DNA from: Planctomycetota bacterium
GTDB lineage: Bacteria; Planctomycetota; UBA1135
Assembly (NCBI GenBank): GCA_045047305.1
Contig: JASFYO010000005.1
Span: forward strand, 12,277 to 76,276
Direction: 5' to 3'
Length of the DNA: 64,000 nt
Shown here: piece after piece, positions 35,272 to 63,788 of the stretch
Layout of the letters: each line of letters begins with the position of its first letter
How positions within the stretch are numbered: the stretch's first letter is position 1
Position numbers and translations under genes: made by a program
Notes under the pieces: generated by a model
What the model was told of the DNA's origin: nothing
Database searches by the model: none
Seen by the model: only the letters and a program-made list of their open reading frames with translations

Positions 35272-35796
35272 TTAGCGACCGACCGGCGTCAGGCCGATGG
35301 CATCGGGCGCCAAGGAACCTGGGGTATCGTTCCACGATGCTGCAATCGGCGCACGGTAGACCTGAGAGTCGGTGAAGTCGACCCAGAAGGTATCCAGTCC
35401 AGAATACTCGCGAAGGTTTGGCCACGCCCATGCCCCCACGATGCGCCCGTTGGCATCGTGGCCGCTGCGATAACGGTAGCCGCCACGGTGTCCCACTCCA
35501 AAGCCGTCGAAAATCATCGGAGGCTGAAAGTTGAAGGAGGGAGTGCGCAAGTGAGCTGCACGATTGGGAAGGTTAGGTACGGATTCTGCCACCTGGCGAA
35601 TCTCTACGAAACTGCCGACCTCGCGCATCCATAAGGCCTCAGCCGAAGAAAGCATCTGCAGGTACTCCACCGCGTGGCTTTGATTTTCATCTTTGCGTGC
35701 CTTCAGCGCCAAAGGCAACAAGGCCACCGACAAGGCGGTTAAGAGCATGATGAATATGAGAAGCTCAAGCAATGCGAACCCTTTGAGGGGTTGCAC
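35272..35796 (-). CDS. Type IV pilin/pseudopilin-like protein (start GTG 35796 or 35823)
   Basis: Class III signal peptide KG|FALLELLIFIMLLTALSVALLP with Glu at +5. Confidence 0.8.
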   Translation of the reverse strand: MQPLKGFALLELLIFIMLLTALSVALLPLALKARKDENQSHAVEYLQMLSSAEALWMREVGSFVEIRQVAESVPNLPNRAAHLRTPSFNFQPPMIFDGFGVGHRGGYRYRSGHDANGRIVGAWAWPNLREYSGLDTFWVDFTDSQVYRAPIAASWNDTPGSLAPDAIGLTPVGR

Positions 35797-35830
35797 AATC
35801 GAATCGTCTGGAAGGTCTTGCACGGAATCT

Positions 35831-37813
35831 CTAGCTATGGACGACCGCCTCACCCTGTGCCGCAACAATGTCGGCCTGCAGGTGAGACGGTACTTGCGCG
35901 TAACGCGCGAGCTCCATACTAAAGTGCCCCTCGCCGTGAGTCATGGCTCGAAGCTGGGTGGAATAAGATTGCAGTTCCGCAAGCGGCGCTTCTGCTTCCA
36001 TGGTTTGGAAATCGCCGGCCGACTGCATGCCTTGAATATGCCCGCGGCGGGAGTTCAGGTCGCCCGAGACCTCACCAAAATAGCGCGAAGGAACAGTAAT
36101 CGAAATCCGCATAATGGGCTCCAGCAAAATGGGACTTGCCTTGGTAAAACCATCGATTAAAGCACGAGCACCTGCAACGCGGAAGGAATGTTCATCGGAA
36201 TCCACTGCATGGAATTTGCCATCGTAAAGCTCAACGGTGACATCGACCACTTGGCTACCAGCAATCACGCCCTGCACCATTTGCTCACCGACGCCCTTCT
36301 CCACTGCCGGGATGAACTGACGCGGCACCGAGCCTCCGACCACTTTGTCGACAAATTCATAACCAGCGCCACGTTCTCTGGGAATCAAGCGAATATTGCA
36401 TGCGGCAAACTGGCCCTTGCCTCCCGACTGCTTTTTGTGCTTATGCGATCCCTCCGCGGGAATGGTAATGGTTTCGCGGTAAGCAATGCGCGGAAGGTGT
36501 GACTCAACTGCAACCCCGCGTACTGCTAGGCGGTGCAGCATGGCATTGAGGTGTAGCTCACTTAAGCCCTCTACGATAGTTTCGTGAGTGACCGAGTCAT
36601 AATGCACTTGAAAGCACGGGTCTTCCCGTTCCATTTTGTGCAGCTCTTGACCAATCTTCTGTTCCGCGCTGCGGTCCAACGGCACAATGGCCCGCGAGGT
36701 GTAGGGCGTCGGCAAGGGAAACTTATGAAAGTGTCCCTCCCCTTCGCTGACCAAGACATCGCCGATACGTAAATCATCGATGCGGGTGACGGCAACGATG
36801 TCGCCTGGTCCGGCAACGGAAATGCCATCGAGCCGCTCTCCGAACAAGGTAGACAAACCATTCATTTTCACGGCCTTGCCTTCATGCGGATCAATTAAAG
36901 CATCACCGGCATTCAACCTTCCTTGCAAAATACGCAGATAGGAAATCTGGCCGAGGTGTTGATCACTCAAGACTTTCCAAACTCGAGCGACAGTACGCTC
37001 CGACTCTCCGCCACTTTCAATGTTGTCACTGTGCATGGCTGCAAGCTGCATCGCTGCATCTGGAAAATCGCGCACCATGAAGTCAGCGAATTCAGCTACG
37101 CCAATCCCATTGGTTGGGTTCAAGCAGAACAAAGGCGCGAACGTTCCTTTGGCCATCGCCAAGGGGAAAGCAGCCTCCAGGGATCCATGGGAGATATCCC
37201 CCTCCTCTAAATACTTCTCCATTAACTCATCGTTAGCTTCGACCACAGCATCCACAAGATGTTCGCGATGTTCTCCCGCTTGCTGCTCCACCACCGATAC
37301 AGAATTAAACCCGGGGCCAGTTTCATTCGCAAGGGTGAACGGGACTACGCGTTGCCCAAAAACTTCACGTATATTTTCAATCACTTTATCCATATGCAGG
37401 TTGTCGCCATCAAGGCGGGTCACCACAACCGCACGAGCAAGGCCAAGCGCTCCAGCCTTCTCCCACAACTGAAGGGAATGAAAAGGGACGCCGGTCTCCC
37501 GTGCTGGAACCACGATGACGGCAGTGCCGGCCGCGCCCATGGAGGTAATCGCATCCGCAACAAAATCGGGATATCCCGGAGTATCAATCAGGTTCAACTT
37601 GCCATGCGGTGCTTCCAAATGCACCACGCCCGCAGAAAGGCTATGCCGTTTTTCTTTTTCATCCGGCAAAAAATCGCACAAGGTGTTTCCGTCTTCCACT
37701 GTCCCCACGCGGTCGATGGCACCAAACAGGTGCGCGACCTTTTCTATCAACGTGGTTTTTCCTGCGTCGGAGGAGCCAAGAAACGTGATGTTATGGATGT
37801 CGGTTGTGGACAT
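35831..37813 (-). CDS. fusA2: Elongation factor G paralog (EF-G2/EFG II type)
   Basis: G1 GSSDAGKTT, G3 DTPGYPDF, degenerate G4 TRLD; domain IV KKQSGGKGQFA and HAVDSDE; domain V ILLEPIM. Confidence 0.9.
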   Translation of the reverse strand: MSTTDIHNITFLGSSDAGKTTLIEKVAHLFGAIDRVGTVEDGNTLCDFLPDEKEKRHSLSAGVVHLEAPHGKLNLIDTPGYPDFVADAITSMGAAGTAVIVVPARETGVPFHSLQLWEKAGALGLARAVVVTRLDGDNLHMDKVIENIREVFGQRVVPFTLANETGPGFNSVSVVEQQAGEHREHLVDAVVEANDELMEKYLEEGDISHGSLEAAFPLAMAKGTFAPLFCLNPTNGIGVAEFADFMVRDFPDAAMQLAAMHSDNIESGGESERTVARVWKVLSDQHLGQISYLRILQGRLNAGDALIDPHEGKAVKMNGLSTLFGERLDGISVAGPGDIVAVTRIDDLRIGDVLVSEGEGHFHKFPLPTPYTSRAIVPLDRSAEQKIGQELHKMEREDPCFQVHYDSVTHETIVEGLSELHLNAMLHRLAVRGVAVESHLPRIAYRETITIPAEGSHKHKKQSGGKGQFAACNIRLIPRERGAGYEFVDKVVGGSVPRQFIPAVEKGVGEQMVQGVIAGSQVVDVTVELYDGKFHAVDSDEHSFRVAGARALIDGFTKASPILLEPIMRISITVPSRYFGEVSGDLNSRRGHIQGMQSAGDFQTMEAEAPLAELQSYSTQLRAMTHGEGHFSMELARYAQVPSHLQADIVAAQGEAVVHS

Positions 37814-37903: not shown

Positions 37904-38593
37904 TTAAGGCAGAACTAGGATTTCTACCCGACGGTTCTTTGCCTTACCTTCTTTGGTAGAGTTATCTTCTTTCGGATCCCATTCGCCGTGACCAGCAATG
38001 CGAACGTACTGCGACTCAATCTCTTTCTCAAATACGAGATAATCTGCTACCGAAAGCGCACGGTTCACCGACAAAGCAAGATTGCTCTTCCAACCAGATT
38101 TCTTGGGTTGATCCGAATCTGTGTGGCCTTCCACCCAAAAAGTTTTTCCGGTGTAAGACTCCTTCAGCACGTCGGCGACGCGAGACATGGTTTCCTTACC
38201 CTTCTTGTTTAACTCGGCTTTGCCGGAGCCAAAAGTTAGGTTGGAATCAACCCCAAGAACAATGAAGCCTCCACGGGATTCTACTTCCACGCCAGTACCT
38301 GCGAGGCGTGCTTGCAAGTCGGCGACTTCGGAATCCTGCTGCTGGAATGCTGCCTCACGCGCAGCCAATCGGTCCTGGATTTCAGCGGCGCGTTGCTGCT
38401 CGAAACTCAGTTGATCGGATAGCGCAGCGTTCTCAGCACGCACGCGCTGGGTCTCAAGGCGGAGATTGTCCGACTCGGTTTTGTATGCAGCGAGCTGCTG
38501 ATCTTGGTCGTCAAGCATCTGGCGATGCATTTGGCTCTGACACGATGGAGCGGCCAGTGCGAGAAGTAGGATGAGAAGTGTGGATTTCTTCAT
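37904..38593 (-). CDS. OmpA/MotB-family peptidoglycan-binding lipoprotein with coiled coil
   Basis: Lipobox AAPS-C; coiled coil; VEGHTD...SNLALSVNRA...NRRVEI. Confidence 0.88.
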   Translation of the reverse strand: MKKSTLLILLLALAAPSCQSQMHRQMLDDQDQQLAAYKTESDNLRLETQRVRAENAALSDQLSFEQQRAAEIQDRLAAREAAFQQQDSEVADLQARLAGTGVEVESRGGFIVLGVDSNLTFGSGKAELNKKGKETMSRVADVLKESYTGKTFWVEGHTDSDQPKKSGWKSNLALSVNRALSVADYLVFEKEIESQYVRIAGHGEWDPKEDNSTKEGKAKNRRVEILVLP

Positions 38594-38613: not shown

Positions 38614-39609
38614 CTAACCGTTAAGGAATTGGGGCCAGGTCTCGAGGAAGAACTGGTGGACGGATGCGGGAGCCATCAAAACGAGGACGGTCCCCAAAAT
38701 CAGTGGCGGACCGAACGGAATGGTCCGCCCGGCAAGCCAGCCAACATGCGCGAACGAATGTACATAGGTGTGGGTCTTGCCCTGCGTCCGACGTCGGTGG
38801 CGAACCACCAAAATCATGCGCACGACGTTGACCACGCCCAGCACTGCGCCCGCGAAGACGCCGACAGCGAGAGTCCAAACGGAGCCCTCGAGGCCGAGGA
38901 AGGCACCGACAGCGGCGATGTACTTGACGTCGCCAAAGCCCAGTGCTTCCTGCTTAAGAAGATAAGAAAACAGGCGACCAATTCCAAACAAGAACCCGAA
39001 AGAAATAAGGGAACTAAGGAATCCTGAAATCAAAGCGAGTTGATTTAGCGGCAAATCCAGAGGAATTCCGAACCAATCGAGGCCCAATGGCATGGTGTCC
39101 AATCCAGGCCAAAAATGAAATTCTGGGACCAGATAGGCCGCAGCTAATCCGAAGGGAATTCCGCCCAAGGTGATGCCATCGGGCAGGATGAAATGACGAA
39201 AATCGACAGCCATCGCAATCCACAGGCCTGTTAAGGCAACGAAGGATAGCCCAAGTGCCACTGGGCCACCGCCTAGAGCAGAATCTGCCAACCAACTGTG
39301 CCCAGCAAGGTAAAACAAACCCGCTAAGCCGATCTCGTGGACCAGATAGCCTGGCCCAAAGCCAGATTTGCAGTCGCGGCAGCGGCCACGGAGAATCAAA
39401 TACCCAAGGACCGGAATATTATCATGCCAGCGGATGGTCGCGTTGCAGCAGGGGCAATGTGAGCGTGCAGGGCTCGCGATCGACATCCCCTCTTTAGGAA
39501 TGCGAAAGATGGCCGCCGAGGCGAAGGAGCCAGCCATCGCGCCGCACACCACCAAAAAGGTGATGTAGAGGCCAGGACTCTCCACTTGCAGGACTTGCAA
39601 CCAGTTCAT
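38614..39609 (-). CDS. pilD: Prepilin peptidase (A24A)
   Basis: GSF...RIP, RSHCPCC, DNIPV.GYL.LRGRCRDC, D...FILPD, GFGDVK and IPFGP motifs. Confidence 0.93.
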   Translation of the reverse strand: MNWLQVLQVESPGLYITFLVVCGAMAGSFASAAIFRIPKEGMSIASPARSHCPCCNATIRWHDNIPVLGYLILRGRCRDCKSGFGPGYLVHEIGLAGLFYLAGHSWLADSALGGGPVALGLSFVALTGLWIAMAVDFRHFILPDGITLGGIPFGLAAAYLVPEFHFWPGLDTMPLGLDWFGIPLDLPLNQLALISGFLSSLISFGFLFGIGRLFSYLLKQEALGFGDVKYIAAVGAFLGLEGSVWTLAVGVFAGAVLGVVNVVRMILVVRHRRRTQGKTHTYVHSFAHVGWLAGRTIPFGPPLILGTVLVLMAPASVHQFFLETWPQFLNG

Positions 39610-39651: not shown

Positions 39652-40479
39652 CTAGTGATGTGTGCGTCGAACCATACGAATCACTCGGTCGGACTCGGGT
39701 AAAGGCCAGCCACCAAGCCCTTCTACACCAGCCGGAAGCTCCAATGCGCCTCCACCAACCCAGGCAGGAATGTTCACCTCAACCACGGCGCCGGAGAAGG
39801 TGTTTTCGATTAAACGGAGCGTTACGAAATCTGGCTCCATTTGGCCTTGCGCTTGCCAGCGTGCCTTTCCCCTCAAGGTCCGGGGATCAATACCACGTGA
39901 GAAGTGCAGCAGGACCGGTTGGTCGCGCAGGAAGACATGCGGTTCATGCTCTGAAGGGCCCAGTAGGCCCAGCTGTGAGGATTCCACGCCGCGGCCGGCA
40001 AGAGCGCCGGCTGAAGCCGCATCGGCCGTGTGGAAGCGCAGGATGAGGTCTTTCGGCAAGAGAGATCCGTCCCTTGCAGCTAGGGCACGCAACCAAGGCA
40101 ATCCATGCAAGCGAATTCCATAACTTTGATTCGGGTGCAAACTGCCATCGCTAAGATCGGCGCGTAACGGTAAGCGGGGTTCTATGTGAATCCAGCGACC
40201 CACAACGGAGACTGACGCGGTGTCTACCACATGGCCCCCCTCATCCACCAGCTCAACCGAACTAGCACGCATCGGCTTCGCAAGTGGGAAATTGAACTCT
40301 ACTTTCAAGACTTGATCCAAGGCAACAGGCTGCTGGTCATCACCCGTCCAAGAAACTACCTGTAGGCGTGTGGGTATTCCCTCCACCCCACAGCTAGCCA
40401 GGGAGCCTAATAGGAACATAATCGCACTCAAGGTGCGTGTGCGCTGCCAGTTAGATTGCGGAAACAAGGATTGGCTCAT
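39652..40479 (-). CDS. Small Ig-like (Big_5-like) lipoprotein (protein E)
   Basis: Lipobox LAS-C; V.FNFPL, F.RGIDP.TL and G.L.P..SY motifs resemble the N-termini of proteins C and D. ATG 40479 lies 7 nt after TATGCT. Confidence 0.65.
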   Translation of the reverse strand: MSQSLFPQSNWQRTRTLSAIMFLLGSLASCGVEGIPTRLQVVSWTGDDQQPVALDQVLKVEFNFPLAKPMRASSVELVDEGGHVVDTASVSVVGRWIHIEPRLPLRADLSDGSLHPNQSYGIRLHGLPWLRALAARDGSLLPKDLILRFHTADAASAGALAGRGVESSQLGLLGPSEHEPHVFLRDQPVLLHFSRGIDPRTLRGKARWQAQGQMEPDFVTLRLIENTFSGAVVEVNIPAWVGGGALELPAGVEGLGGWPLPESDRVIRMVRRTHH

Positions 40480-40500
40480 AGATTGCAGCATAGCGTGCCA

Positions 40501-40541
40501 AAAAGAAAACCCCTCGTCATCGAAGGCTGACGAGGGGTTTT
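40501..40541 (-). terminator. Rho-independent terminator of the large-lipoprotein operon
   Basis: AAAACCCCTCGTCA-TCGAAGGC-TGACGAGGGGTTTT with a U-tract on the minus strand. Confidence 0.88.
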
Positions 40542-40555: not shown

Positions 40556-43500
40556 TTACCAGCCCCAAGGAATCTTCAGGTATTCCAAAGAAGGCTTCTC
40601 CTTGTCCACCGTTGGACCGGAATTCAAGGCATCGATGTCGAAGGTGATGCGATAGCGGACGAAGCGCTTGCCCTGGAGATCGGACATGCTGGTGACTCCA
40701 TCGCCAGTCCATGGAGTGGCTGCTGCAATATCCGGCGTGTTCGAGCCAGGAGCCGTCTCCTCTGTGCCTTGGAACTGAATGCGTACGCTTGCAGAAGCCG
40801 GCAGACGATCCTTGGTTGCCGTGGTGGTCACGCGGAAGAACTTCGAGCGTACAGCCCAATTGGCCGAAGCCACTAAAGACATAGGCCCATCCGAAACACG
40901 AGTGGTCAAGACCAAGGTCTCCGGACTAGCAGTGTAAACAGCATCCATTATTTCAAAGGTGGATGGAGTCACCATGCTGGTGTCTGGAACCATGTCGTAG
41001 CCGACCATCAGGTTCGGGTTGCGCAACAAGTCTGCACCGAAGGACGATGATGGGTTGGCAATGGTCACGGTGTAGTTGGAGAAGCTAGCGGTTCCTGTTC
41101 CACCATCAACACCGACCACAGAGCCTGGAGTGACCAAGTTGGAACCACTAAGCACCAAGCCCGTTGCTTGATCAATACCTTCGAAACCGAGAGTGGTGTC
41201 AAGGTAGTCCGGGAAAGGACCGGTTCCGTTTGCTGGGTTGCGTAGTTCTGCAAGACCAGTATCGACCCACACGCTTTGCACCTGAGATTCTGGAGAGAAC
41301 ATCGGGACCAAGGTGAATGGCACTGGAATGGCATAAATCCCAAGCACTTCATCCTGGCGATCAGAGATGGCTGGATTACTGGGATCCAAAGCCGTGATGT
41401 ACTGCTTGAACGCCGCGTCTACCGAAGGGTGGTAGGTGATGTCTTGCAATGGATTCGGCACGTGGATTTGGATCAAGCCACTAGCACCTGCTCCACCGCG
41501 GCCAATCATGTAAGTGCTGTTGCCATCGTTTTCGCCATCGCCACTGAATCCAGTGTCGTCATCAGTCTCATTGAAACCGTTAGTAGGAGAAACGAAACGA
41601 CTACCAGCCCAGCCCCGACGTCCACCAATCGCTTGGATTAGGTGTGAGTTGGTGATGTTGGCAAAGAAGGTTGCAGGCACCGCTGGGTTACCCGCCGTTC
41701 CCACTGGAATCTGGCTGAGGTTTAATCCCGATGCCGAGTGCAGAATGAGGTGTCCACCAGAACCACCACCAGATCCCGATACTTGGGAGGTCGTTGCGAG
41801 ATCACCGCCGTCTCTGGAGGATTGTCCGCCCTGACCGGAGCCGCCATTCACTTTCAGAATCGCTGCCGGACCAAGAGTAATCGGACCAAGACATAACAGT
41901 TGCACCTGTCCACCACCACCACCACCGGGTGCGCCACGGAAGTAGCGCGCGGTGTAACCCACACCCGCGAAGTTAGGGTCAGGGAACAACATGTTCAGGG
42001 TGTCTGGGTATAAATCCCCATCCAAGTCAAAGCGGAACATGGTTTGAATATCACCACTTGCACCACCACCAGAGCCTGCGTACGGCGCACTCAGCTCCCC
42101 CGTGACCAGGGTTGGTGCAACGCCAGCGGTGCCATCCCAGAAGTAGCGGTGGCCCCAAAAGTTATTGCTCGTTTGCCCATCAGTAAAAACCGAGCGGCCA
42201 GCAATGCCGCCATCGGGCCCAGTATTTGGGTTGCCGAATGGAAAGGCGATGGCGGCGCCGGTCTCAGAACGATCAAAGAGGATTTCCCAATCGACATCAT
42301 TCAAGGTGTCTTGGGAACGGTCCTCAAAACCTTGCACGCCGTGCGGTCCAGTGATGGTTTGGCTATCCGGATTCCGCGTATGAGATCGACTGGAACCACG
42401 CAACCCATCTTCAGCACCTAAGAATGCCAAATCAGGATCAATCGTCGCGTTGTAAATCGTGTGCCGATCAGCGCGTAAGTCAGGGCCGGAGTTATCAAAA
42501 CTGGAAGGATTCTCAAGCAAACTCCAACGATCCCAGAAAATGGAATCGGTACGGCCTTCACTAAAGCCGCCACCGGCACCACCACCGGCAATGAGGTATT
42601 CGGAAGCTATTAGGGTTGGACCTACGGCAGCAGCGCGGTCTTGTTGATAGCCACCCTCACCGCCAATGCCTCCACCGCCAACCACGCCAAAAGGCCCGTT
42701 GCCCGTTTCGCCACGTGGGGTGTAATCATTCAGCACAAGAGATGCAGAGCCCCCCTTGCCGCCACCGCAGGCTCCAAGTGCGCCCGGGACAGCCAAAAAC
42801 CAACTGTTAATGGCTCCATCTGGGGCCGTAGCATTAAAGCCACTGGCATCTAAGGTGCCAAGCAGGATTGCCTCACCGGAAACGTAAACCACCAATGGGT
42901 TATCGCCAATCGCGCGCAAGGTGGCTCCGGCCTCAATGGTGAAATCGTGAACATTCATCACACCATTCGTCACGGTAAAGACTTTGCCATTACCATCGGT
43001 AACTTGAGTCGTGGATGAAGTATCAATCTGAAGCAGACCTTGCCCAGTGGTAATCACAAAGTTACGATCCACGCCAACGGGAGTGCCGGGGAACGGGAAG
43101 TCTGCAGCAATCACGCCAGGCGTGATGGATGCTGGAGGCTGCGGCAAATCGGCCTCCAAGTCCAAACGGTTCGGGTTTCCAAAGCCATCCGTATATTCAT
43201 CAAAAGTTACATCTTGCTCATCAATCGCTGGGCCGTTCGCATAAAATTCCGCGATGGTCGGCACTGCAATCGGACTGGTCACCACCGTGGTGGTGTTGGT
43301 GTTACCGCCTAGATCCTCGAAATTGGAAGTCAGGACCACACGAATATCGCGGCCCGGAATCAAAACACCACTAACCTGGAAATGGATTAAAGCACCATCG
43401 CCACAGTTGCTCACCACTTGCATGGCACCCGGGATCACGTTTCCACTGCTTGGGAAGATTCCGCTAGCATTCGAAAACTGCACGTAAATCCTTGCCGTAG

Positions 43501-44149
43501 AAAAATTAATCGGCTCCGGATTCACCGATTGGTTAAAACTCAAGACAATGGTGGAATCATTTTGAGAAACCAGACCAATGGAGTTTGGGACGGTGACATT
43601 ATCCAACAACGGAGGCCCCACAGTGGTGTCGGCAAACAATGTTTCGCCAGCTGTTGGGGTACGGAAGATACGAGTTAAACCAATTGCTAACTGATGCCCT
43701 GAGATGTCGCGAAGGACGGCTGCGCCTCCAGCACCCTCTGTGGGAAGGATTAGCTCATAACCAAAGTTGCCGGGAACAAAGCCACCGTTGCTGTTGTCCA
43801 CGTTATCCGGACAAGCAGGATTGAACTGAATGCCGAAGTTCCTGTTTCCCTCAGCATCGGTGATCAACTCGAAGGATCCGGTAACTGGATTGCCTGTGTT
43901 ACTTAAATCTGTCGGGCGCAAAATCACCGAAGCAAAATTAACCGAATTCGCGTCAATTTCGTTATTGAAAAAGAGCTGAATTGGGCGGTTAAGCAACCAA
44001 CTATCCCCATTGCTAACGTTGGAAGTTAAAACTTCAAAACGGCCAATGGATGACACCGATTTTTTACAACCGACAACGAAAAGGGGAAGCAATGCAACGC
44101 CCATGATGAAGGCGCTGCGCAGCAGGGATGTTTTGATGTTAGGCATCAT
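40556..44149 (-). CDS. Large Gly-rich surface lipoprotein with Ig-like domains (protein C, paralog of D)
   Basis: Lipobox VVG-C; FNNEID..SVNF and FEDLGGN motifs; GGGAGGG and GSGGGSGG tracts; ATGA overlap with the upstream gene. Confidence 0.85.
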   Translation of the reverse strand: MMPNIKTSLLRSAFIMGVALLPLFVVGCKKSVSSIGRFEVLTSNVSNGDSWLLNRPIQLFFNNEIDANSVNFASVILRPTDLSNTGNPVTGSFELITDAEGNRNFGIQFNPACPDNVDNSNGGFVPGNFGYELILPTEGAGGAAVLRDISGHQLAIGLTRIFRTPTAGETLFADTTVGPPLLDNVTVPNSIGLVSQNDSTIVLSFNQSVNPEPINFSTARIYVQFSNASGIFPSSGNVIPGAMQVVSNCGDGALIHFQVSGVLIPGRDIRVVLTSNFEDLGGNTNTTTVVTSPIAVPTIAEFYANGPAIDEQDVTFDEYTDGFGNPNRLDLEADLPQPPASITPGVIAADFPFPGTPVGVDRNFVITTGQGLLQIDTSSTTQVTDGNGKVFTVTNGVMNVHDFTIEAGATLRAIGDNPLVVYVSGEAILLGTLDASGFNATAPDGAINSWFLAVPGALGACGGGKGGSASLVLNDYTPRGETGNGPFGVVGGGGIGGEGGYQQDRAAAVGPTLIASEYLIAGGGAGGGFSEGRTDSIFWDRWSLLENPSSFDNSGPDLRADRHTIYNATIDPDLAFLGAEDGLRGSSRSHTRNPDSQTITGPHGVQGFEDRSQDTLNDVDWEILFDRSETGAAIAFPFGNPNTGPDGGIAGRSVFTDGQTSNNFWGHRYFWDGTAGVAPTLVTGELSAPYAGSGGGASGDIQTMFRFDLDGDLYPDTLNMLFPDPNFAGVGYTARYFRGAPGGGGGGQVQLLCLGPITLGPAAILKVNGGSGQGGQSSRDGGDLATTSQVSGSGGGSGGHLILHSASGLNLSQIPVGTAGNPAVPATFFANITNSHLIQAIGGRRGWAGSRFVSPTNGFNETDDDTGFSGDGENDGNSTYMIGRGGAGASGLIQIHVPNPLQDITYHPSVDAAFKQYITALDPSNPAISDRQDEVLGIYAIPVPFTLVPMFSPESQVQSVWVDTGLAELRNPANGTGPFPDYLDTTLGFEGIDQATGLVLSGSNLVTPGSVVGVDGGTGTASFSNYTVTIANPSSSFGADLLRNPNLMVGYDMVPDTSMVTPSTFEIMDAVYTASPETLVLTTRVSDGPMSLVASANWAVRSKFFRVTTTATKDRLPASASVRIQFQGTEETAPGSNTPDIAAATPWTGDGVTSMSDLQGKRFVRYRITFDIDALNSGPTVDKEKPSLEYLKIPWGW

Positions 44150-47100
44150 TGGGTGGTGTAAGCGAAGCCAAAGGCGTCAAGTTCAGCGAGCAGGTCTTGC
44201 TCAATGTTCGACACGAAAGTGAACCGAAGTTGGAAGAAACGGCGGCCATCGGCAATGAGGTCAGCTGGGTCAGAATACCAGTCCGAAGGCAATGACATTG
44301 TTGCACAAGTACCTTGGTATTCTCCATAGGAGTCGAAGCTGGTGCTTGCGTCGTTCAACGGCGACGGGCTGTCGGTTGCAATGCAGGTGGCATCATTGAT
44401 GGTGATGGTGGAGCGGAACTGCACCTCAACGGAAGTGCCTGGATTAGCTTGTGCCGCAGTAGGTTCGATGGTCAGGGCAGACATGGCATCGAGGTTGCCA
44501 CCAAAGTCAAACCAGTGGGTGTAAACCTTACTCACCTTAGTAACGAAATCGACCTGTCCCCAGTAGAGCTCTGGGCCAAAGCCCTTAGTGCCGACACCAG
44601 TCACGGTGTTATAGCCGCCGTTTGGAGCGGTACCTTCAGGCGGAAGGTCTGGGCGCACCAAGTTCCATACCGAGTTGCCGTCGCGACCGCCGGAGGAGAA
44701 CACGCGGAAAGCCGGGATGTTGGAAGAACCAACCATGATTTGAACCTGGAATCCGTTGAAACCAAATTCCTGGCCGCGCGGATAACAGCGGAAGCGCATC
44801 AGCAAAGGCAACGCAATGCTTGGGAACTCCCCTGCAAGCCAAACTGGAACACCACCGATGACGGACGGAGGAACCCCATAACCAGCATCATTGGTCGGAG
44901 TACCGCCAGAAGGATTACCGCCGACTAAGGCACCACCATCCGGGATTGGGAAGTGAGTGTCACGCCAAGTGTAAGTGGTCGCAAAGTCTGGCCATGGGTA
45001 CATGGACACTCCGCCTGAGGTCTGGAATCGGTTCACGCTTGATATTTCATAATTGGTATCAAACACAATGACCTCGTCTAGATCTGCATAAGCTACAGGA
45101 TCTTGGCCAAAGCCATAGATATTCGAATCGAAGTTATTTCCAGTCAAACGCTTCAATCCAGAGTTCTTGTGCTCTGGATAACCAGAGCCTGCATTGATGA
45201 AATCATCTGGGAAACGCACCGAGTGGGCCAAAGCAAGCGAGTAACGATCAAAAGTATCGTCGAAAACCACGCCTTCAAAGGGTGACCAATTCAGACCTTC
45301 CACATCGAGATTGAACTCACTCACGCTAGACAGGCCGAAACCAAGCTGATGATATGCGTAACAAGTCATCAATACGGCTCCCGCTGGAGTTAGTGGAGTC
45401 ATCAGGCCTTGAGTGAACTTCAGACGCTGACCCACGAACTGGTTGGTTTGGTCCGCCTGGCGTGAAAAACGAACAATGCCGCGTCCGCGAAGCACACCAT
45501 CACCCACAATCGGGCCAAGTTGGCCAGCGTATTCCGGAGTTTGATCCCCATCCTCATCGATACCGTTGCCGCGCAGTGCAAAGTACTTGTCAACGGGAAC
45601 AGCGGTTCCGCCTAAAGTCCATTTCAATCCGGACAGTTGGAATTGCGAAGAGTGTCCAGCAACAAAACTGGAGAAGTCGACGACATTTCCAGCAAGGTCG
45701 AGGATGCCAGTATTGCCATTGCGTAGCGCAAGAGACAGTTGCAGGCTAGTGCTTTCGCCAAAAGCATCGGTAATACCGGCTAAGGGTGCGAGGGTAAAGG
45801 ATTGAGCATCACCGGAGGCCTGGATTGGGCCAAACATAATGCGGCCTGGGCCACCACCACTACCAAATCCTGGCAAGCGATCGAGGAAGTTGGGAACTGT
45901 TTCACCACCAACCAAATCCCATTCTCTGTCGTTTCCGTCGACGCCGGCACTGAGGTTAGCCGAGGAAAGCACCATGGAATCCAGCGAGCGTACTGTAGTG
46001 ACGTTGATTGGCTCACTGAAACGGACCGTAATCGTTGAGAATGGGTCCACGCCGTTTGCCGGAAAGTTAATCGTTGGAGCGGGCGTTATGGTTAAGAAAC
46101 ACAACTGCAAAGCAGAATCGGCCACCGTGTAGCGGGTCGTTAGGTTTCCGGAGCGTGGGTTGAAGCCTCCGGGCAAAGTCCCTGCCAAAAGAGCACCCTG
46201 CACCTCAAGGGCAGCGTTGTTGGAAGTGTCGATGACGCTAGTAACTTGTAGTAATGCACCATTGACCTCAATCACGTCCCCTACCTTTGGACTCAAAGAA
46301 CGACAACCCAAGACATCTAAGGCGTAAATAATGTTACGTTGGTTACCGATTTCAATCACCGAGGCAATGGTGATTTCTTGAGTCACAATCAGGGACGGCT
46401 TGGAAGTGTCGGTCAAAAACCCGTTAAAAGCATCCAAATGGTTTCCAGTACGCACTGCGCGCACGGCAACAGGATCAAGCCCCGCAAACTCATGCGGTTC
46501 TATAATTGAATCTCCAGCTGCATTCCGGTTTACGTCGAAAGTTTGCGTGTTCGCTTTGTTGCTCAGCAGAAGCGTTTGGTTGATAAAAGGATTTAGCTTA
46601 GTTGGGATCCGCAACTTGATGTTCGGAGTTTGCTGATTCTCCGATTCTGGAAATCCAATTCCGTTCTCTGGAATGCCCAACTGTTGCGCATCGATTTTGG
46701 AGATAGTTGGATCTAAAATAACGATACCAACGGGCTCTCCATCTTGCCCTACTCCTTCTTTCACGACATAGCGAACTTCAAGGGAGGAAAGGCTATCTTG
46801 GGAGGTTCCGACCAAAACCTGGATGGTTTGGCGATCCACCGTATTCGGATTCAGGAACTCAGAAAACACCAAACGAATCGCGCCGTTACGTGCAAGCTTG
46901 GTAAATGGGCCCGGTGAATCAAAACTCTTGGCCTGAAGCGAAGTCAATCCGACACGGGCGTCCGCTAAAGCCTCATCAAACGCCACCGTGCCGCTGGTTT
47001 CAAGGATGGTCAAGACCTCAACCTGAGTGATCGGGTTTTGACTCAACACATAACGAATGCCGTCGCTCTGCAAGCTCTCTCGAATCACGACATCGGTTTC

Positions 47101-47310
47101 CACCAAATCGCCTGCAAGGTCAAAAAGATTGATGAGGCGCCCCCACTGCATGTCCTCAAGAACGAGAGAAGCTTTTCCAGATCCAGCTCCAGTGCCGATT
47201 CCGGCACCGATTCCATCACCAGTAGCACCACACCCGACTAAGGAGAGAGCCGGTAAGGCAACAACGGTTGCAACGACGAAGCGTGCAAAAGAGTTTTTGA
47301 ATTGAATCAT
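44146..47310 (-). CDS. Large surface lipoprotein with Ig-like domains (protein B, paralog of A)
   Basis: Lipobox LVG-C; WGRL, RNGAIRLVFSE, ILDLAGN, DEDGD and VEGLNWSP motifs; ATGA overlaps at both ends. Confidence 0.85.
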   Translation of the reverse strand: MIQFKNSFARFVVATVVALPALSLVGCGATGDGIGAGIGTGAGSGKASLVLEDMQWGRLINLFDLAGDLVETDVVIRESLQSDGIRYVLSQNPITQVEVLTILETSGTVAFDEALADARVGLTSLQAKSFDSPGPFTKLARNGAIRLVFSEFLNPNTVDRQTIQVLVGTSQDSLSSLEVRYVVKEGVGQDGEPVGIVILDPTISKIDAQQLGIPENGIGFPESENQQTPNIKLRIPTKLNPFINQTLLLSNKANTQTFDVNRNAAGDSIIEPHEFAGLDPVAVRAVRTGNHLDAFNGFLTDTSKPSLIVTQEITIASVIEIGNQRNIIYALDVLGCRSLSPKVGDVIEVNGALLQVTSVIDTSNNAALEVQGALLAGTLPGGFNPRSGNLTTRYTVADSALQLCFLTITPAPTINFPANGVDPFSTITVRFSEPINVTTVRSLDSMVLSSANLSAGVDGNDREWDLVGGETVPNFLDRLPGFGSGGGPGRIMFGPIQASGDAQSFTLAPLAGITDAFGESTSLQLSLALRNGNTGILDLAGNVVDFSSFVAGHSSQFQLSGLKWTLGGTAVPVDKYFALRGNGIDEDGDQTPEYAGQLGPIVGDGVLRGRGIVRFSRQADQTNQFVGQRLKFTQGLMTPLTPAGAVLMTCYAYHQLGFGLSSVSEFNLDVEGLNWSPFEGVVFDDTFDRYSLALAHSVRFPDDFINAGSGYPEHKNSGLKRLTGNNFDSNIYGFGQDPVAYADLDEVIVFDTNYEISSVNRFQTSGGVSMYPWPDFATTYTWRDTHFPIPDGGALVGGNPSGGTPTNDAGYGVPPSVIGGVPVWLAGEFPSIALPLLMRFRCYPRGQEFGFNGFQVQIMVGSSNIPAFRVFSSGGRDGNSVWNLVRPDLPPEGTAPNGGYNTVTGVGTKGFGPELYWGQVDFVTKVSKVYTHWFDFGGNLDAMSALTIEPTAAQANPGTSVEVQFRSTITINDATCIATDSPSPLNDASTSFDSYGEYQGTCATMSLPSDWYSDPADLIADGRRFFQLRFTFVSNIEQDLLAELDAFGFAYTTQ

Positions 47311-50300
47311 GGCTGTTTGTTATTCCAGACAATACCCAAACTATCTAGTTCAGGGCGCAGACCTAGGTCTGCATTTGATTTAAAGGTCACGCGTACCTGT
47401 AGGAAGCGGAATGCCCGCCCCTCCAGATCGCTCATATTGGTAGTCCAATCACTTGGAGTGCTTACCGTTCCCAAAGCACCTGGAAAAAAATCACCGTGGT
47501 CATCAAAGGGCGTATCAGCATTGGTCAGTGGGGATGGATTCTGGCCTGGGTCCACCACGTGGGTCACCGATTCTGCTCCACGGAATTCCACCGTAATGGA
47601 AGTTCCCACGGGTTGATTCTCATTTGCAGGCTCAAGAATCACGTCGGTCACTTGGCCAAGAAGAAGGTTCGATCCCATATCCAGCCAGTGCGTGTAAATA
47701 CGGGAAGTATCTACTACAAAATCTGCCTGGGTCCAATAGATGTGGTCATCCCCCACGAAAGTGGTTGGGTTACCCGTTCCAGGCACAAAACCACCAATTG
47801 GGATAGTTCCACCTAAAGCCGAATTATCCGGCTGCACTTGGTGCCAGTTGCTGGAACCATCCTGACCACCTGAAGACCAAATGCGGAAGTTCACCATAGG
47901 GTTGCGTAGCGGCAACATTTGGGTGACCGAGAAGGAATTCAGGCCGAGACGGTTGTTTTGCGGGTAAACGCGGAAGCGTGCGAGCAAAGGCAAGGATACC
48001 GAAGGCACAGCTTCTGGACCCCATCCGAAAATGGTGCCATTGTCGGCAGCATACTGCTGGTTTGGTGCACCAAAGGAATTCTGGGCTCCACCGAGGTAGG
48101 TTTGCGAGATGGTGGTGTCGCGCCAAACATAGTTCGCGGTGAACTCTGGCCAAGGCATGTAAGGCGTTCCATTGTTGGAGAAGCGCTCGATGCTGTTCGC
48201 TACGTAGCTACTGCGGAAGACTTCCACTTCATCGATCCCAGATGATCCGTCGGCGGTAAAGCCGAGGATGTTGTCATCGAATGCGCTAATCAGCAATCCG
48301 GACTCACGCCAGATTGGCTGTTGGGTTAATGGATTCAAAAGTTCATCGGGGAGGAACTTGGAAGTGGAAAGCGAAAGCGAAACGTCTTCGAAAGTTTCAT
48401 CGAAAACAACACCAGCATTCGGAGACCAGTTAAAGCCTTCCACCGTCATGTTGTATTCCGTAGCGTCGCCGTATGCGAAACCAAATTCTTGTGGACGATA
48501 AGCACTCATGACCACGGCGCCAGCTGGGTTGAGTGGCTCGGTAACCGGAACCCCAAGCAGGCGATTTGACATGGCAGGACTGGAAGAGTCCGCAGCGCGG
48601 GAGAAGCGTGCTGGAAAGCGGCCAGACAGACTGTGGCCAAGAACGCTGGAGTTGCCGGCCCACTCGGACTGGCCATCGCCATTTTCATCGAGGGAAGAAC
48701 CGTTGAACATGAAGTAGCTTGCACCGTCTGCCAAGGCAGTGTGCTGCACCGTGATGGCAATGGATTGCGCTCCTGGCTCTCCAGGTTGTCCGTTGCCTGC
48801 AACAAAACCTTCCACATCCAGTGGGTTTCCAGACAAATCGAGGATGCCTTCCAAACCGCCACGCAAAGCGACGACATAGGCTTCACCGTTGACTGCGGTT
48901 TGAGGATCAAACCAACCATAAGAAGGGGTCAAGGTGTAGCGGCGGTTGCCGTCGGTTGCCTCGACTGGGCCAAACAAAATACGTCCACCAAACTCCGATG
49001 CCGCATCAGCGCCGGTGATGACAGGACGATAATCATAGCCGCGTTGGCGATCAATAAAGTCGCCGGTGCTTTCTGCTGCATTGACCTGACGATACCAAGC
49101 CGTTTCGATTTCAAACTCCGTGTTAATACTACCCACGGGAAGAACGTCTGGAGATGCAATCACGAAGGTGCTCATCGAGCGCATCGTGGTGGCGCTAATA
49201 GACTCATCGAAACGCACGGAAACGGAAGCATTGTCCGCGATGAGAATCAAACCACCGGGGATACTCGAAGTCAGGATTGGCGGTTGAAAGTCCAAGTAGC
49301 ACACTTGAACCAAAGCATCTTGCGGGGTGTAAGTCGTGGTGTAACGAGTAGGCAGTGCCGTTGCGCCGACCACGATAGATGCATCTGTAGCCTCAAGAGC
49401 AGCGCGCACAGAATAGTTATTTGGGTCCGCGCTGTTTAGTACATCGGTGACCAAAAGCAGGCCATTGCCAATCTCAAAGACATCGCCGACTTTCGGCGCC
49501 ATTGGCTTACACACGTCCAAATTTACGCTATATAGGAATTCAACCACGCTGCCGGAAATCGAAGTCACGCTGTTCACGGTTGCATCTTGCACCCCGAGCA
49601 AACTTGGCGCCGTGTTATCGAGGAGGAATCCGTTGAAGTCATCCAGGTTGTTGCCGGTACGTGCTGCACGCACCAAAACATCAGAAACTCCAGTGGATTC
49701 AAAAGGCTCCGTAGTCCGGTCTTGAACCGAAGGAGTGTGTTTGCCGTCGAGGCTGCGCAGCACCTTGGGCTGACCGATGAGCGGATCGGGCTGGGTTGGA
49801 ATTCGAATCGCCAAGTTGGCGCTTACCGAATCTGCCGACGGTGGAAAGCCCACCGAGTTCTGCGGAATCGCCTCATTGGCGGCCTCGGCTGCAGACACCG
49901 TGGTATCGAAGTAAACATAACCTTTGTCCAGGGCGCTGTCGTTCTTCACGATGTAACGTCCAGTGAAGGACAGCAGAGGCGGATTACCCGTAAACATCTG
50001 AATCGTGGTGAAGTCCACCGAAGATGGGTCAATCTGCTCCGAGAATTGCAAGCGAACCGTTGCGTTACGCGCAATCTCTGTGAACGGCGGAGCAGCATCC
50101 GCGGCCTTATCCACCACCCCTTGCAGGTTGGATTTTGCTGCGTTTAAAAGTCCGGTGAAGGTCGCAGAACCAGCATCACGCAGGATGGTCAGAGTCTCCT
50201 TTTGGCTGACTGGGTTGTTGCTGACTTCATAGTTCACGCCATCGGATTCGATGAGGTGGTTGACCAGGACGTCGGCCTCAATTAGAACGCCATTGGAGTC

Positions 50301-50468
50301 ACGCACATCGACTAATCGACCCCAGGTCAAGTTCTCAAGGAAAAGGCCAAGTGAGCTTTGCGTATCACCGCCAAGGCCGCCTGCGGAGCCTGAGGCAGAG
50401 ATGCAGCTACCACCGACCACGGTGGCGGCCGCTAAGCCAAATGCTGAGATTCGAGTGAGGAGATGCAT
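47307..50468 (-). CDS. Large surface lipoprotein with Ig-like domains (protein A)
   Basis: Signal peptide ending VVGGS-C; WGRL, RNATVRLQFSE, ILDLSGN, DENGDG and VEGFNWSP motifs. Start ATG 50468. Confidence 0.85.
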   Translation of the reverse strand: MHLLTRISAFGLAAATVVGGSCISASGSAGGLGGDTQSSLGLFLENLTWGRLVDVRDSNGVLIEADVLVNHLIESDGVNYEVSNNPVSQKETLTILRDAGSATFTGLLNAAKSNLQGVVDKAADAAPPFTEIARNATVRLQFSEQIDPSSVDFTTIQMFTGNPPLLSFTGRYIVKNDSALDKGYVYFDTTVSAAEAANEAIPQNSVGFPPSADSVSANLAIRIPTQPDPLIGQPKVLRSLDGKHTPSVQDRTTEPFESTGVSDVLVRAARTGNNLDDFNGFLLDNTAPSLLGVQDATVNSVTSISGSVVEFLYSVNLDVCKPMAPKVGDVFEIGNGLLLVTDVLNSADPNNYSVRAALEATDASIVVGATALPTRYTTTYTPQDALVQVCYLDFQPPILTSSIPGGLILIADNASVSVRFDESISATTMRSMSTFVIASPDVLPVGSINTEFEIETAWYRQVNAAESTGDFIDRQRGYDYRPVITGADAASEFGGRILFGPVEATDGNRRYTLTPSYGWFDPQTAVNGEAYVVALRGGLEGILDLSGNPLDVEGFVAGNGQPGEPGAQSIAITVQHTALADGASYFMFNGSSLDENGDGQSEWAGNSSVLGHSLSGRFPARFSRAADSSSPAMSNRLLGVPVTEPLNPAGAVVMSAYRPQEFGFAYGDATEYNMTVEGFNWSPNAGVVFDETFEDVSLSLSTSKFLPDELLNPLTQQPIWRESGLLISAFDDNILGFTADGSSGIDEVEVFRSSYVANSIERFSNNGTPYMPWPEFTANYVWRDTTISQTYLGGAQNSFGAPNQQYAADNGTIFGWGPEAVPSVSLPLLARFRVYPQNNRLGLNSFSVTQMLPLRNPMVNFRIWSSGGQDGSSNWHQVQPDNSALGGTIPIGGFVPGTGNPTTFVGDDHIYWTQADFVVDTSRIYTHWLDMGSNLLLGQVTDVILEPANENQPVGTSITVEFRGAESVTHVVDPGQNPSPLTNADTPFDDHGDFFPGALGTVSTPSDWTTNMSDLEGRAFRFLQVRVTFKSNADLGLRPELDSLGIVWNNKQP

Positions 50469-50693
50469 CCTTTTGGGTTGATTCACGGATTCTATTTTTG
50501 TTAGCGCTAGGTGGGACAACACCTAGACCGACTATCCTAAAGCGGCGAGTCAGACTTAGCTGTTCCTTATTGGCAAATCCCGTACCAACGCCGGGAAGTG
50601 CCTGTATGGGGCTATTTTAGGGCAGGAACGCCCGCAGGGTGCGGTTTCGCACCAAGGCTTCCTGCTGCTAAGTTTAGCTCCTGAAAGCGGAGA

Positions 50694-52064
50694 TTATCCA
50701 CCCCATTGATAGCCTGCTCGCTCCGCGGCGTCACGGTCCAAAAAAGGTTGCAGGTTTTCTGACCGAATGCGAAGAGCTGCGCCAGAAAACAATGCATGAA
50801 CCTTGTTGGTTGAACGGCAGCCAGCATATTCCACCGCAAGCTGAGTATCACAATAGGTACACAAAAAGCTCCGGCGTGCCGCTCCGATCACCCGCCAAGA
50901 TGCCGAGAGCCCTTCAGCACGGGAAACGCAGGCTGGATTAGGGCAGGGACCCAGCTGCTCGTCGGGGCTGCCGGCCGGTAAGGGCGACAAATACGGCAGC
51001 GGCCAGCGGTCTTGACGCAACATAGCGAGATAAATCGCTTGGCGTACCACCGGGCCCAGCTTGGCTTGCTCAAAGTAAAGCGCGCGTGGGTCTTCATCGA
51101 TTTCCGCCGGGAGCTCTCCAAGTCGTGGCAGGGGATGCAAAATCTTACATTCAGCGAGCAAAGGGTTTTGCATTTGAGCCGGCGTCAATCCGGGATAGGA
51201 GCCGTGCCCCGCTTCGGCCCCCCGCTCAGCCTGAAGACGCGTGAGATAGAGCGCATCGAGGGCGTCAATCGCTGGCACCTCTTCACGAAACAGAGATTTC
51301 TGCACCAACCCTTTCGGCTCCAGCACGCGAGCCTCTGCATTACCTGTCCAATCACCAAACAATGGGTGCTTAACCCACCGTAAACGATAGTCGAAGCGAT
51401 CCAAGATACGACGCTCAAAGCCGGCTTCCCAATCCAGGCCTACTCCGGGCAACAACACAATGCGTACTCCCAAAACTGCAAGTGCCCAAACCAAGGAACG
51501 TGCGGTGCGGCCATTGCGCAAGTCCCCCATCACTGCAACTGTGCGACCAGCAAAATCACCCCATTCACGGTATAGCGTGTATAGATCCACCAAGGTTTGC
51601 GTTGGATGGCCGAGGCGGCCGTCACCGCCATTCACCACTGGCACCTGGGTTACTTGGCTGGCGAGTCGAGACGCTCCATCGAGCGGATGGCGCAACACTA
51701 AGAGATCCACATAACTGCCAATCACCCGCGCCATATCAACCAAGCTTTCTCCCTTACTTTCACTCGAAGTTTTAGGGTCGGCCATAGAGATAACCGAGGC
51801 GCCAAGCCGGTGCGCGGCGGCTTCGAAGGAGAGGCGCGTGCGCGTGGATGGCTCCGCAAATACGGTAGCGATCACCGAACCGCGCAAAGCATCTTCAAAA
51901 TCACTTGGTCGTGCCTCCAGTTCCTCCACTCGCTGAAAGAAAGCTTGCAGGAAAGGCGTGTTTAGGGCTTCCGAAGAATGGAGACCCTCCATGACCGGCA
52001 AGAGATGCATCGGGCGATTAGGAGACGGGACAGGAAAGCTGGCCGAAGTGGCGAGTGATTCCAC
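50694..52064 (-). CDS. pyrB: Aspartate carbamoyltransferase catalytic chain fused to a PyrI-type Zn domain and an Ada-like domain
   Basis: FAEPSTRTRLSFE, KGESL.D, HPTQTL.D, TRLQ.ER and HPLPR motifs; C-terminal CPNPAC...CTYC. Confidence 0.92.
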   Translation of the reverse strand: MESLATSASFPVPSPNRPMHLLPVMEGLHSSEALNTPFLQAFFQRVEELEARPSDFEDALRGSVIATVFAEPSTRTRLSFEAAAHRLGASVISMADPKTSSESKGESLVDMARVIGSYVDLLVLRHPLDGASRLASQVTQVPVVNGGDGRLGHPTQTLVDLYTLYREWGDFAGRTVAVMGDLRNGRTARSLVWALAVLGVRIVLLPGVGLDWEAGFERRILDRFDYRLRWVKHPLFGDWTGNAEARVLEPKGLVQKSLFREEVPAIDALDALYLTRLQAERGAEAGHGSYPGLTPAQMQNPLLAECKILHPLPRLGELPAEIDEDPRALYFEQAKLGPVVRQAIYLAMLRQDRWPLPYLSPLPAGSPDEQLGPCPNPACVSRAEGLSASWRVIGAARRSFLCTYCDTQLAVEYAGCRSTNKVHALFSGAALRIRSENLQPFLDRDAAERAGYQWGG

Positions 52065-53824: not shown

Positions 53825-54811
53825 TTAGCGAGGAAGGCGGAAAGTCAACGTACGTACGCCACCGAGGCGCTCCACTTTCACTTCGATGACATCCGTGTCC
53901 ATTTCGCGCACCGAACGAAACAGCTGGTCGCGGTCGACGGCTGGTTGACCATTCACTTCCAGCAAAATGTCATCGGCCTTGATGCCAAGACGCGAGAACA
54001 CCGACCCCGCAGGCACGCTGCGAATGCGCAAACCACGCACCTTGTTTGAAAGTGGGTCGCGCGCAACACGGACCGGAACCGAGGCAAGGATTTCCTCCTG
54101 CGACATCTTCTCTAACTCGCGTAAATCATTGGACCCGATTTCATAAGCGCCAGCTTCCACTTGTTCGGTTCGCTCGGGTGCGACATAAACCACTGCTACG
54201 CCATCTACCTCTGCAGAGCCTCCCCTACTTGTATCGTTACCGCGAACGAAAACCCGGCCATGATCGACTTCGTAGGCGCCTGGCAGAACCACCATCATTG
54301 TGCCGGTATCCACCACTTGAATTTCAACTTCGCCGGGGCGCACAGCCACCAGTTTTAACTCTAATCCCTTTTTATCATCCAATTCAAACGTTGATCCGAC
54401 ACCGATCAAGTCTCCAGGAATATACTCATCCTTGGGACGCTCAGTACGGCCCTGAATCCACGCCGCAGAGGGTGCCTGAATCCATGGCACCAAAATATCA
54501 TTTGGAGAAATACGCGGCTTGACCTTCACCTCTTCCTCTTCTTTGAGGACAGGCGGCGGCGCAACGTACCCAGTGATGTTCAAGGCTTGAAGCACCTTGT
54601 AATTTTCATACGGCTTCAGGTGGCCACCATTCCGGCCAGCTGCACTGCCATCAGCGCCAAAGGTACCTTCCAGTTTCGCCATCGAGATCTGGCGCACGAT
54701 GACGTCTTTGTTCTGGATGTAGTCAAACATCTTCCAGCCAAATCCACCAAGGGTGCCAAGTCCAACTAGGACTAACACTAAGCGCAGCAGTTTCTCGTTC
54801 ACGTATGGCAT
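53825..54811 (-). CDS. GspC-like inner-membrane protein with C-terminal PDZ domain
   Basis: N-terminal transmembrane segment; C-terminal GLRIRSV..GSVF..LGIK.DDILLEVNG...V.VER.G, typical of the GspC PDZ domain. Confidence 0.7.
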   Translation of the reverse strand: MPYVNEKLLRLVLVLVGLGTLGGFGWKMFDYIQNKDVIVRQISMAKLEGTFGADGSAAGRNGGHLKPYENYKVLQALNITGYVAPPPVLKEEEEVKVKPRISPNDILVPWIQAPSAAWIQGRTERPKDEYIPGDLIGVGSTFELDDKKGLELKLVAVRPGEVEIQVVDTGTMMVVLPGAYEVDHGRVFVRGNDTSRGGSAEVDGVAVVYVAPERTEQVEAGAYEIGSNDLRELEKMSQEEILASVPVRVARDPLSNKVRGLRIRSVPAGSVFSRLGIKADDILLEVNGQPAVDRDQLFRSVREMDTDVIEVKVERLGGVRTLTFRLPR

Positions 54812-62868: not shown

Positions 62869-62983
62869 GGAACTGGAGGCCCGGACCATCACGGCACCCG
62901 AAAGCCGCAGCTTAGAGCTGCTCCATTCCTGGTCTGACCCGGTTCACCGCAGTTTCGCTGCGTGAGGCCGGACCCCCAGTTCC
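62869..62983 (-). ncRNA. ffs: Small bacterial SRP RNA (4.5S)
   Basis: Long terminal stem GGAACTGG...CCAGTTCC; helix 8 GGTCAGACCA-GGAA-TGGAGCAGC; located upstream of dnaX. Confidence 0.9.
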
Positions 62984-62998
62984 TTCACTGAGTTCGAA

Positions 62999-63086: not shown

Positions 63087-63123
63087 ACTGATTCGACAAA
63101 AAACGTATTCCCCGGCCTGGGAA

Positions 63124-63213: not shown

Positions 63214-63261
63214 TATGGGGCGGGGAATCATACCCGCCGCGGACGGGCGGCGGAAGCCCTC

Positions 63262-63777: not shown

Positions 63778-63788
63778 GTGAAGAAAAA

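Follow-up and report, generated by a model that had tools for sequence, protein, structure and literature searches.

What kind of system is encoded when three giant lipoprotein genes overlap one another head to tail? The question is raised by a stretch of 64,000 nucleotides (the window) from contig JASFYO010000005.1 of a Planctomycetota bacterium assembly (GCA_045047305.1, lineage UBA1135). On its minus strand, gene A (47307-50468; 1053 residues from its ATG), gene B (44146-47310; 1054 residues) and gene C (40556-44149; 1197 residues) are joined by ATGA overlaps at both the A/B and the B/C junction, and the unit is closed by an intrinsic-terminator-like hairpin (40506-40541, minus strand) with a 14-bp stem and a T tail. 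Similar hairpins also lie 3' of C in close relatives. The same strand carries the related genes E (39652-40491; 279 residues) and D (30281-33418; 1045 residues). Two further genes of the genome come into play: C', another C paralog standing alone on contig C46 (G000:C46:5482-9051, L106), and F, encoding a 1049-residue lipoprotein on contig C83 (G000:C83:13439-16588, L103). The original prediction, made from the window alone, had the reading frames, strand, both overlaps and the terminator right, as well as the lipoprotein-type leaders, whose lipobox-like Cys is found by pattern at A22, B27, C28, D23 and E34. This protein family proved to be conserved, vertically inherited and marked by a shared promoter signature. 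A to E and C' are predicted from structural models to be giant lipid-anchored stalks with exchangeable heads. The favoured reading, held at even chances, is a co-regulated surface adhesion and recognition coat, with a type II secretion system (T2SS) as its likely export route.

The new observation is that A-B-C, D, the unlinked C' and F appear to stand under one type of sigma-54 promoter with an upstream palindrome. Sigma-54 promoters have a GG at -24 and a GC at -12. Before the A-B-C unit, the promoter-type motif TGGTACGGGATTTGC (50573-50587, minus strand) is preceded at 65 nt by the palindrome GTGCG-N4-CGCAC (50639-50652, minus strand), a candidate site for an enhancer-binding protein. D is preceded by the sigma-54-type motif TGGCATGCCATGTGC (33560-33574, minus strand), and 162 nt before the latter lies a perfect copy of the palindrome (33723-33736, minus strand), inside a divergent HEAT-like reading frame. 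The palindrome is conserved in 9/9 aligned orthologous leaders of A, and its spacing to the motif is alike before the A, C' and F orthologs. Within the taxonomic family, the motif precedes 30 of 34 cassette-leading genes of the A/B type (AB genes; 0.4 expected), 13 of 25 D genes (expectation 0.26), 19 of 21 F genes and both stand-alone C-type genes (2/2), where shuffles put the expectation for such counts at 0.04-0.4. In the source genome, only 11 of 716 gene leaders contain a perfect motif. Looser sites with an upstream palindrome number 7 out of 357 (about 4.6 by chance); four of them are those of A, D, C' and F, three of which have the palindrome at 65-66 nt. A convincing sigma-70 promoter was not found for the operon, nor was any RNA family in or near A-B-C.

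The palindrome had been derived from these loci, and hence a blind whole-genome pattern search for the palindrome plus the sigma-54 motif was performed. It yielded sites in 20 of 21 family genomes and, elsewhere in the class, in 3 of 80; a reversed control gave 0. Out of 41 sites in the family, 36 stand before an AB gene, a C-type gene or F, as judged by profile for 29 and by coordinates for 7; the 34 sites that were read comprise the 29, one before a gene for an FG-GAP-type repeat protein and four unassigned. In distant families the motif is mostly missing (3/41 AB genes). Since the regulatory signal is shared, A-B-C, D, C' and F would form a functional set. The genome encodes RpoN and six strong activator domains, and one sigma-54 activator probably turns on the whole set of A to E, C' and F. 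According to PMC3162934, sigma-54 is linked to the cell exterior. The codon usage of A, B, C, D, C' and F falls in the 85th-95th percentile and that of E in the 23rd (11 reference genes). Apart from these genes, sigma-54-type motifs were also seen before clpB, dnaK and groEL-like genes and before several genes for FG-GAP-type secreted proteins (contigs C19, C21, C66, C20, C55 and C74), hinting at a sigma-54 chaperone response.

By sequence and profile comparison, A, B, C, D and E are assigned to one unnamed superfamily. The full-length similarity of A and B noticed at first was recovered (36.5% over 1038 columns), and the Cys pair they have in common is invariant in 65/65 alignment rows. The proposed pairing of C with D stands as homology (HHalign 99.9%) but is a distant one (23% over about 410 columns, E 5e-4); the nearest paralog of C is C' (38-40%). 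Likewise, the N-terminal module that E was said to repeat is the immunoglobulin-like (Ig) pair of C and D, but not that of A and B. E consists of this Ig-Ig pair alone and is a shortened form of a protein that in other families is of the C/D type and 590-700 residues long. C, D and long E are homologous by profile (99.0-99.9%), and a C-terminal jelly-roll segment is common to AB and C (77%, E 2e-5). The Big_5-type Ig domains of the original prediction are borne out by fold matches and by Pfam scores around the PF13205 cut-off of 23.6 bits: A passes (23.8), B (23.5), C (22.0) and D (22.3) lie just below it, and many homologs carry PF13205. The lipobox Cys at the end of the hydrophobic leader is at least 90% conserved in the alignments, with a non-canonical GGSC in A, and the genome has two Lgt genes. 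The alignments show Cys pairs that are conserved, along with Dx[DN]xDG loops (putative Ca2+ loops); both would fit an extracellular site.

A characterized full-length homolog was indeed not found in Pfam, NCBIfam, PHROGs or the PDB sequences. Pfam gave the weak Big_5 matches only, NCBIfam no match for A-E or C', PHROGs no match for the window proteins, and the PDB sequences no AB match at E<=1 and one chance match for C. There was no ESM Atlas match of >=0.9, and whole-chain Foldseek returned low-TM matches only. The family was also not found described in the literature, including term look-ups in the accessible text of 10.1101/817700, 10.64898/2026.10.26.761892 and PMC11032199; the bioRxiv supplements, outside this search, might list the genes. 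Three other assignments were rejected. The alpha-2-macroglobulin match is limited to an MG0-like Ig domain, with no A2M Pfam domain. A mobile origin is contradicted by a GC content resembling that of the flanks, by the lack of a viral-contig or plasmid relative of C and by a fixed slot among housekeeping genes. F is tied to the other proteins by its lipobox, size and promoter only and was not retained as a member of the superfamily. F itself has weak YVTN-type propeller matches and, at 38-41% across the order, is better conserved than either AB or C.

Confident AlphaFold models were obtained for B (pLDDT 93.0, pTM 0.84; 116-row alignment) and C (pLDDT 92.7, pTM 0.83; 120 rows). Both proteins are predicted to be built on one chassis, in which the lipid anchor is followed by a pair of Big_5 Ig domains and then by a split jelly roll. 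In the B model (numbered from Cys27) the Ig domains comprise residues 22-263 and 276-544, the latter with an inserted barrel (283-367), and the split jelly roll (547-587 and 898-1028) encloses an inserted jelly-roll head (588-897). In the C model (numbered from Cys28) the Ig domains at 10-139 and 151-270 are followed by a split jelly roll spanning 289 to 1170, with an inserted beta-helix and glycine-rich head (about 311-924) and a small barrel (982-1075). By homology to B, A would have the same Ig-Ig-split jelly roll arrangement with a lectin-like head; D is a distant C type with a glycine-rich head. The description as giant Ig-like proteins is thereby correct as to the presence of Ig domains, but these form no arrays and occupy the N-terminal quarter to half only.

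In fold searches the two Ig domains of B and C are of the CopC/MG0/SbsC type (Z 8.3-12.1). The split jelly roll is of the galactose-binding type, with strands contributed from both sides of the large insertion, and matches phage tail and baseplate platform domains as well as Eph and CBM domains (Z 6-8.3, where the tool itself warns that values below 8 may reflect a common arrangement). The head of B is a second jelly roll, nearest to the lectin-like domain of Cwp84 and to lectin-type domains of carbohydrate esterases (Z 6.6-8.1, 142-155 residues). It is the best conserved part of the protein (65% versus 54% in the Ig parts), and invariant polar residues are clustered in the AB head. The beta-helix in the head of C resembles HxuA, TMEM2 and ice-binding proteins (Z up to 7.6). 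Its glycine-rich stretches have a high model confidence with no helix or strand assignment, and because high-confidence coil coincides with glycine runs, they probably form a polyglycine-II bundle. The glycine motifs of C are nearly invariant; the segments 501-600 and 801-850 are variable and indel-rich.

The original prediction had taken the ATGA overlaps as a sign of translational coupling and had deduced a stoichiometric hetero-oligomer from it. This deduction could not be maintained. Four-nucleotide overlaps occur between about 280 of 1136 same-strand neighbors in the genome (25%, by rough reading-frame calling), so that those of A-B-C are no more than chance. They are kept at 3/37 AB-AB and 18/41 AB-C junctions (heuristic starts), and in distant families tens to hundreds of bases separate the genes of the cassette. 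The cassettes also vary in copy number, with 1-3 AB and 0-2 C genes. Coupling was accordingly discarded as evidence for stoichiometry, overlaps being common genome-wide and the junctions unconserved. A midpoint-rooted tree of 54 AB sequences, made without fragments of <850 residues and without many close relatives, groups the A and B clades together within the family and the tandem pairs of other families by lineage, which amounts to at least five separate duplications. On this tree, A and B are a family-specific duplication. From the overlap retention and the tree together, it is concluded that a fixed A:B:C stoichiometry is not ancestral.

The AB profile matches 151/151 genomes of the class (weaker and partial in family f9). 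In related genomes, A-type, C-type and E/C-type matches are each found in 41/41, D-type (weak outside the family) and F in 40/41. In a sample of the phylum, AB matches occur in 34 of 301 genomes, namely all 16 of the same order and, weakly, 18 of 285 others; the C profile matches 74 of 301, outside the order mostly by single domains. The relatives that bear names are MAGs of Planctomycetota; one of them, 'Planctomycetes bacterium UBA1135' (L049), has 48% identity and the same gene order. Gene order was surveyed at 72 loci from the best 80 of 179 matches, a sample in which close relatives are over-represented. Downstream of AB there is a C gene at 33/36 informative family-level loci and 13/24 distant ones, the remaining distant AB genes being stand-alone paralogs or reversed, and the AB cassettes have pilD downstream at 35/36 and pyrB upstream at 34/35 informative loci. 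Both co-occurrence and adjacency of the AB and C types, as originally anticipated, are therefore conserved. The cassette occupies a fixed slot, pyrB-[AB, C, E]-pilD-ompA, within the longer order rne-obg-(pilT)-gspC-like-coaX-mnmE-pyrB-[AB, C, E]-pilD-ompA-like-EF-G-(pilT, pilB)-pilin-like-tatD, which persists, with losses, in families outside the order (L116-L120). There, L117 and L118 lack C and E and have a lone AB-like gene of 870-880 residues between pyrB and pilD, and L119 has a C-like gene of 1710 residues.

In the favoured reading, a surface adhesion and recognition coat, the proteins would be exported by the Sec pathway and lipidated at the conserved Cys. Two Big_5 Ig domains would then raise the split jelly-roll platform above the membrane, as the two models suggest. 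On the AB platform, the conserved lectin-like jelly roll may bind glycans of particles, algae or biofilm. C, C' and D are predicted to carry a beta-helix and a probable polyglycine-II bundle with variable loops, and these heads may read variable surfaces, for example those of prey or kin, in a gp38-like manner. Tandem duplication would have produced a repertoire with no fixed stoichiometry, in line with the tree. Delivery to the surface would be accomplished by a T2SS, as for SslE.

This last step is suggested by the neighboring genes: GspC-like, PilT, PilB and pilin-like genes flank the cassette. The prepilin peptidase gene PilD/GspO (38614-39609, minus strand) is the sole copy found in the genome (2.8 Mb), which has in addition 6 secretins, 4 platform genes of the T2SS or type IV pilus and 20 pilin-type N-termini. 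It is followed on the minus strand by the gene for an OmpA-C-like lipoprotein of the peptidoglycan-binding type with a coiled coil (37904-38593), a conserved neighbor, and that for a pilin-like protein (35272-35868) with weak ComGE/GspG matches and conserved synteny. The GspC-like protein (53825-54811, minus strand), an upstream neighbor by synteny, has an N-terminal transmembrane segment and a Pfam PDZ domain. The linkage of a prepilin peptidase and a T2SS gene that characterizes SslE is thus present here, with the GspC-like gene below the model cut-off. LolA was not matched in the genome, which is 88% complete. From these neighbors, surface display via one of the genome's T2SS-like systems is inferred.

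Several results weigh against this reading. The housekeeping genes of the neighborhood (rne, obg, coaX, mnmE, pyrB, EF-G and tatD) are equally conserved, and the link of AB and C to pilD and GspC may therefore be gene-order inertia. No T2SS or pilin cluster of the genome carries the shared promoter signature, which is limited to the family: it occurs in 3/80 other class genomes, in none before these genes by profile. F is without HHalign profile similarity to AB or C. The head matches, at Z 6-8, lie in the range of common arrangements, and glycine bundles of the gp38 or ALK type were not among the matches listed in whole-chain fold searches, which are dominated by the Ig domains. The best Ig matches include periplasmic and cell-wall proteins (alpha-2-macroglobulin MG0, Ldt and CopC). 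A structural role would fit the universal retention and the rigid models (pTM 0.83-0.84) no less well than adhesion.

Such a role is at the center of the best surviving alternative, an ordered or semi-ordered surface lattice in the manner of an S-layer-like heteropolymer, to which about one chance in several may be given. Here the split jelly roll would polymerize and the Ig pairs would serve as lipid-anchored legs, as in Deinococcus HPI, for which a lipid-anchored two-Ig stalk beneath a canopy is reported in PMC10120038. The lattice is partly compatible with the coat. The presence of AB in 151/151 class genomes and of the C type in 41/41 relatives, the single regulon, the codon usage in the 85th-95th percentile, the Ig matches to SbsC and SbsB S-layer domains (Z 8-9.8) and the resemblance of the split jelly roll to phage tail and baseplate platform domains (Z 7-8.3) all speak for it. 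However, copy number is variable, the duplications are independent and the coupling is unconserved; the codon bias stays below that of the most expressed genes, and each chain has two Ig domains only. Moreover, cultured clade members are described as fragile and shape-shifting, and the term 'S-layer' is absent from the main text of the preprint 10.1101/817700, as far as its accessible portion goes.

Distinctly less probable is a periplasmic location, where the proteins would be membrane-anchored parts of a machine related to the type IV pilus or T2SS, or a scaffold for motility, membrane shaping or tethering together with the OmpA-like lipoprotein. The fixed place among pilT, gspC-like, pilD, ompA-like, pilB and pilin-like genes, retained also by families outside the class (L116-L119), agrees with it, as do the adjoining or overlapping E and pilD genes of distant families and the Ig matches to periplasmic MG0 and CopC domains. 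Against it, the variable loops, the glycine-rich heads, the putative Ca2+ loops and the expansion of paralogs would be typical of proteins that face outward. A terminator separates A-B-C from E-pilD, and stand-alone paralogs lie apart from any pilus gene; among the best 80 of 179 matches, 11/24 distant AB loci have no adjacent C. It is very unlikely that the proteins are enzymes tethered to the surface or that they capture substrates in the use of polysaccharides. Although the AB head has a cluster of invariant polar residues and carbohydrate-active proteins include some with jelly-roll and beta-helix folds, no catalytic family was detected in Pfam or NCBIfam, no transporter or glycosidase is found among the conserved neighbors and the fold matches are non-catalytic domains.

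In the preprint 10.1101/817700, GTDB UBA1135 is made part of the OM190/'Saltatorellota' clade, to which the strains Poly30, Pla133 and Pla163 also belong, and from this it is inferred that the source of the window belongs there. This little-studied group of aquatic bacteria (OM190, GTDB UBA1135, 'Saltatorellus') is known for an unusual cell biology, while hardly any proteins have been assigned to it. The protein family occurs in every sampled genome of the class, takes up about 5,700 codons of this 2.8-Mb genome, has a regulon of its own and combines a defined chassis with exchangeable heads, which makes it a prime candidate for the clade's main surface structure. On a bolder and rather improbable extension, it would be the surface system that defines the class of the OM190/'Saltatorellus' planctomycetes. 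Its coat would be a flexible heteropolymer of proteins with one lipid-anchored chassis and exchangeable heads, of which the variable ones, resembling phage gp38, would recognize prey or kin; the aggregation, the fusion of cells and the changes of shape that are reported for cultured clade members would have their basis in this recognition. A recognition head of the gp38 kind in a cellular organism, if true, would be unusual.

A few other features were recorded. The pyrB gene (window 50694-52064) is fused to a PyrI metal-binding domain. C', which relatives carry as one gene or as several in tandem, is divergent from a gene for an 1100-residue secreted repeat protein. The strongest Big_5 match of the genome is a probable lipoprotein of 971 residues (G000:C2:88012-90927, L104), a few kb from a secretin gene, for which no similarity to A-F was found. 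The window further encodes a TPR protein, ExbB, two ExbD, a decarboxylase and an 888-residue lipoprotein secretin (17-8775), as well as SRP RNA and three tRNA genes (62875-63989).

Among known systems, HPI of Deinococcus radiodurans is likewise a large lipoprotein with a two-Ig stalk beside its lipid anchor, as described in PMC10120038. HPI, however, has seven Ig domains and is encoded by one gene, whereas the family here combines two Ig domains with jelly-roll platforms and heads in five to six co-regulated paralogs. An array of about seven consecutive Ig domains is absent from the models, which have two per chain, and the PDB sequences gave no match to HPI or other solved S-layer proteins. 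The Big_5/SbsA-type (PF13205) and CopC/MG0/Ldt Ig folds also occur twice per chain; as a mere domain label, this name covers a minority of each protein. The tail nozzle and baseplate platforms of phages phi812, HFTV1, Pa223 and SU10 likewise have a jelly roll in which strands from both termini enclose a large insertion (Z 6.3-8.3), but identity is 5-12%, Z is near background and the genes here have no phage context. In E. coli, the gene order is sslE-pppA-gspC. Like the present proteins, SslE (YghJ) is a lipoprotein of giant size with links to a prepilin peptidase and a T2SS, in its case PppA and T2SS-beta. It is displayed at the surface and needs a T2SS and PppA, according to PMC3707838, while T2SS export here is suggested by gene neighborhood. 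SslE has an M60-like protease domain, for which the family gave no Pfam or NCBIfam match. The gp38 adhesin of T-even phages consists of a beta-helix, conserved glycine-rich motifs and hypervariable loops (PMC12032242). The same layout is seen in the heads of C, C' and D, where the polyglycine-II geometry is a probable one; the family is, in contrast to gp38, cellular, chromosomal, about four times larger and lipid-anchored, and gp38-type tail-fibre homology was not detected among PHROGs, PDB sequences or viral contigs. The working likeness is greatest to HPI, SslE and gp38, and from each of these three the family differs in at least one tested feature.

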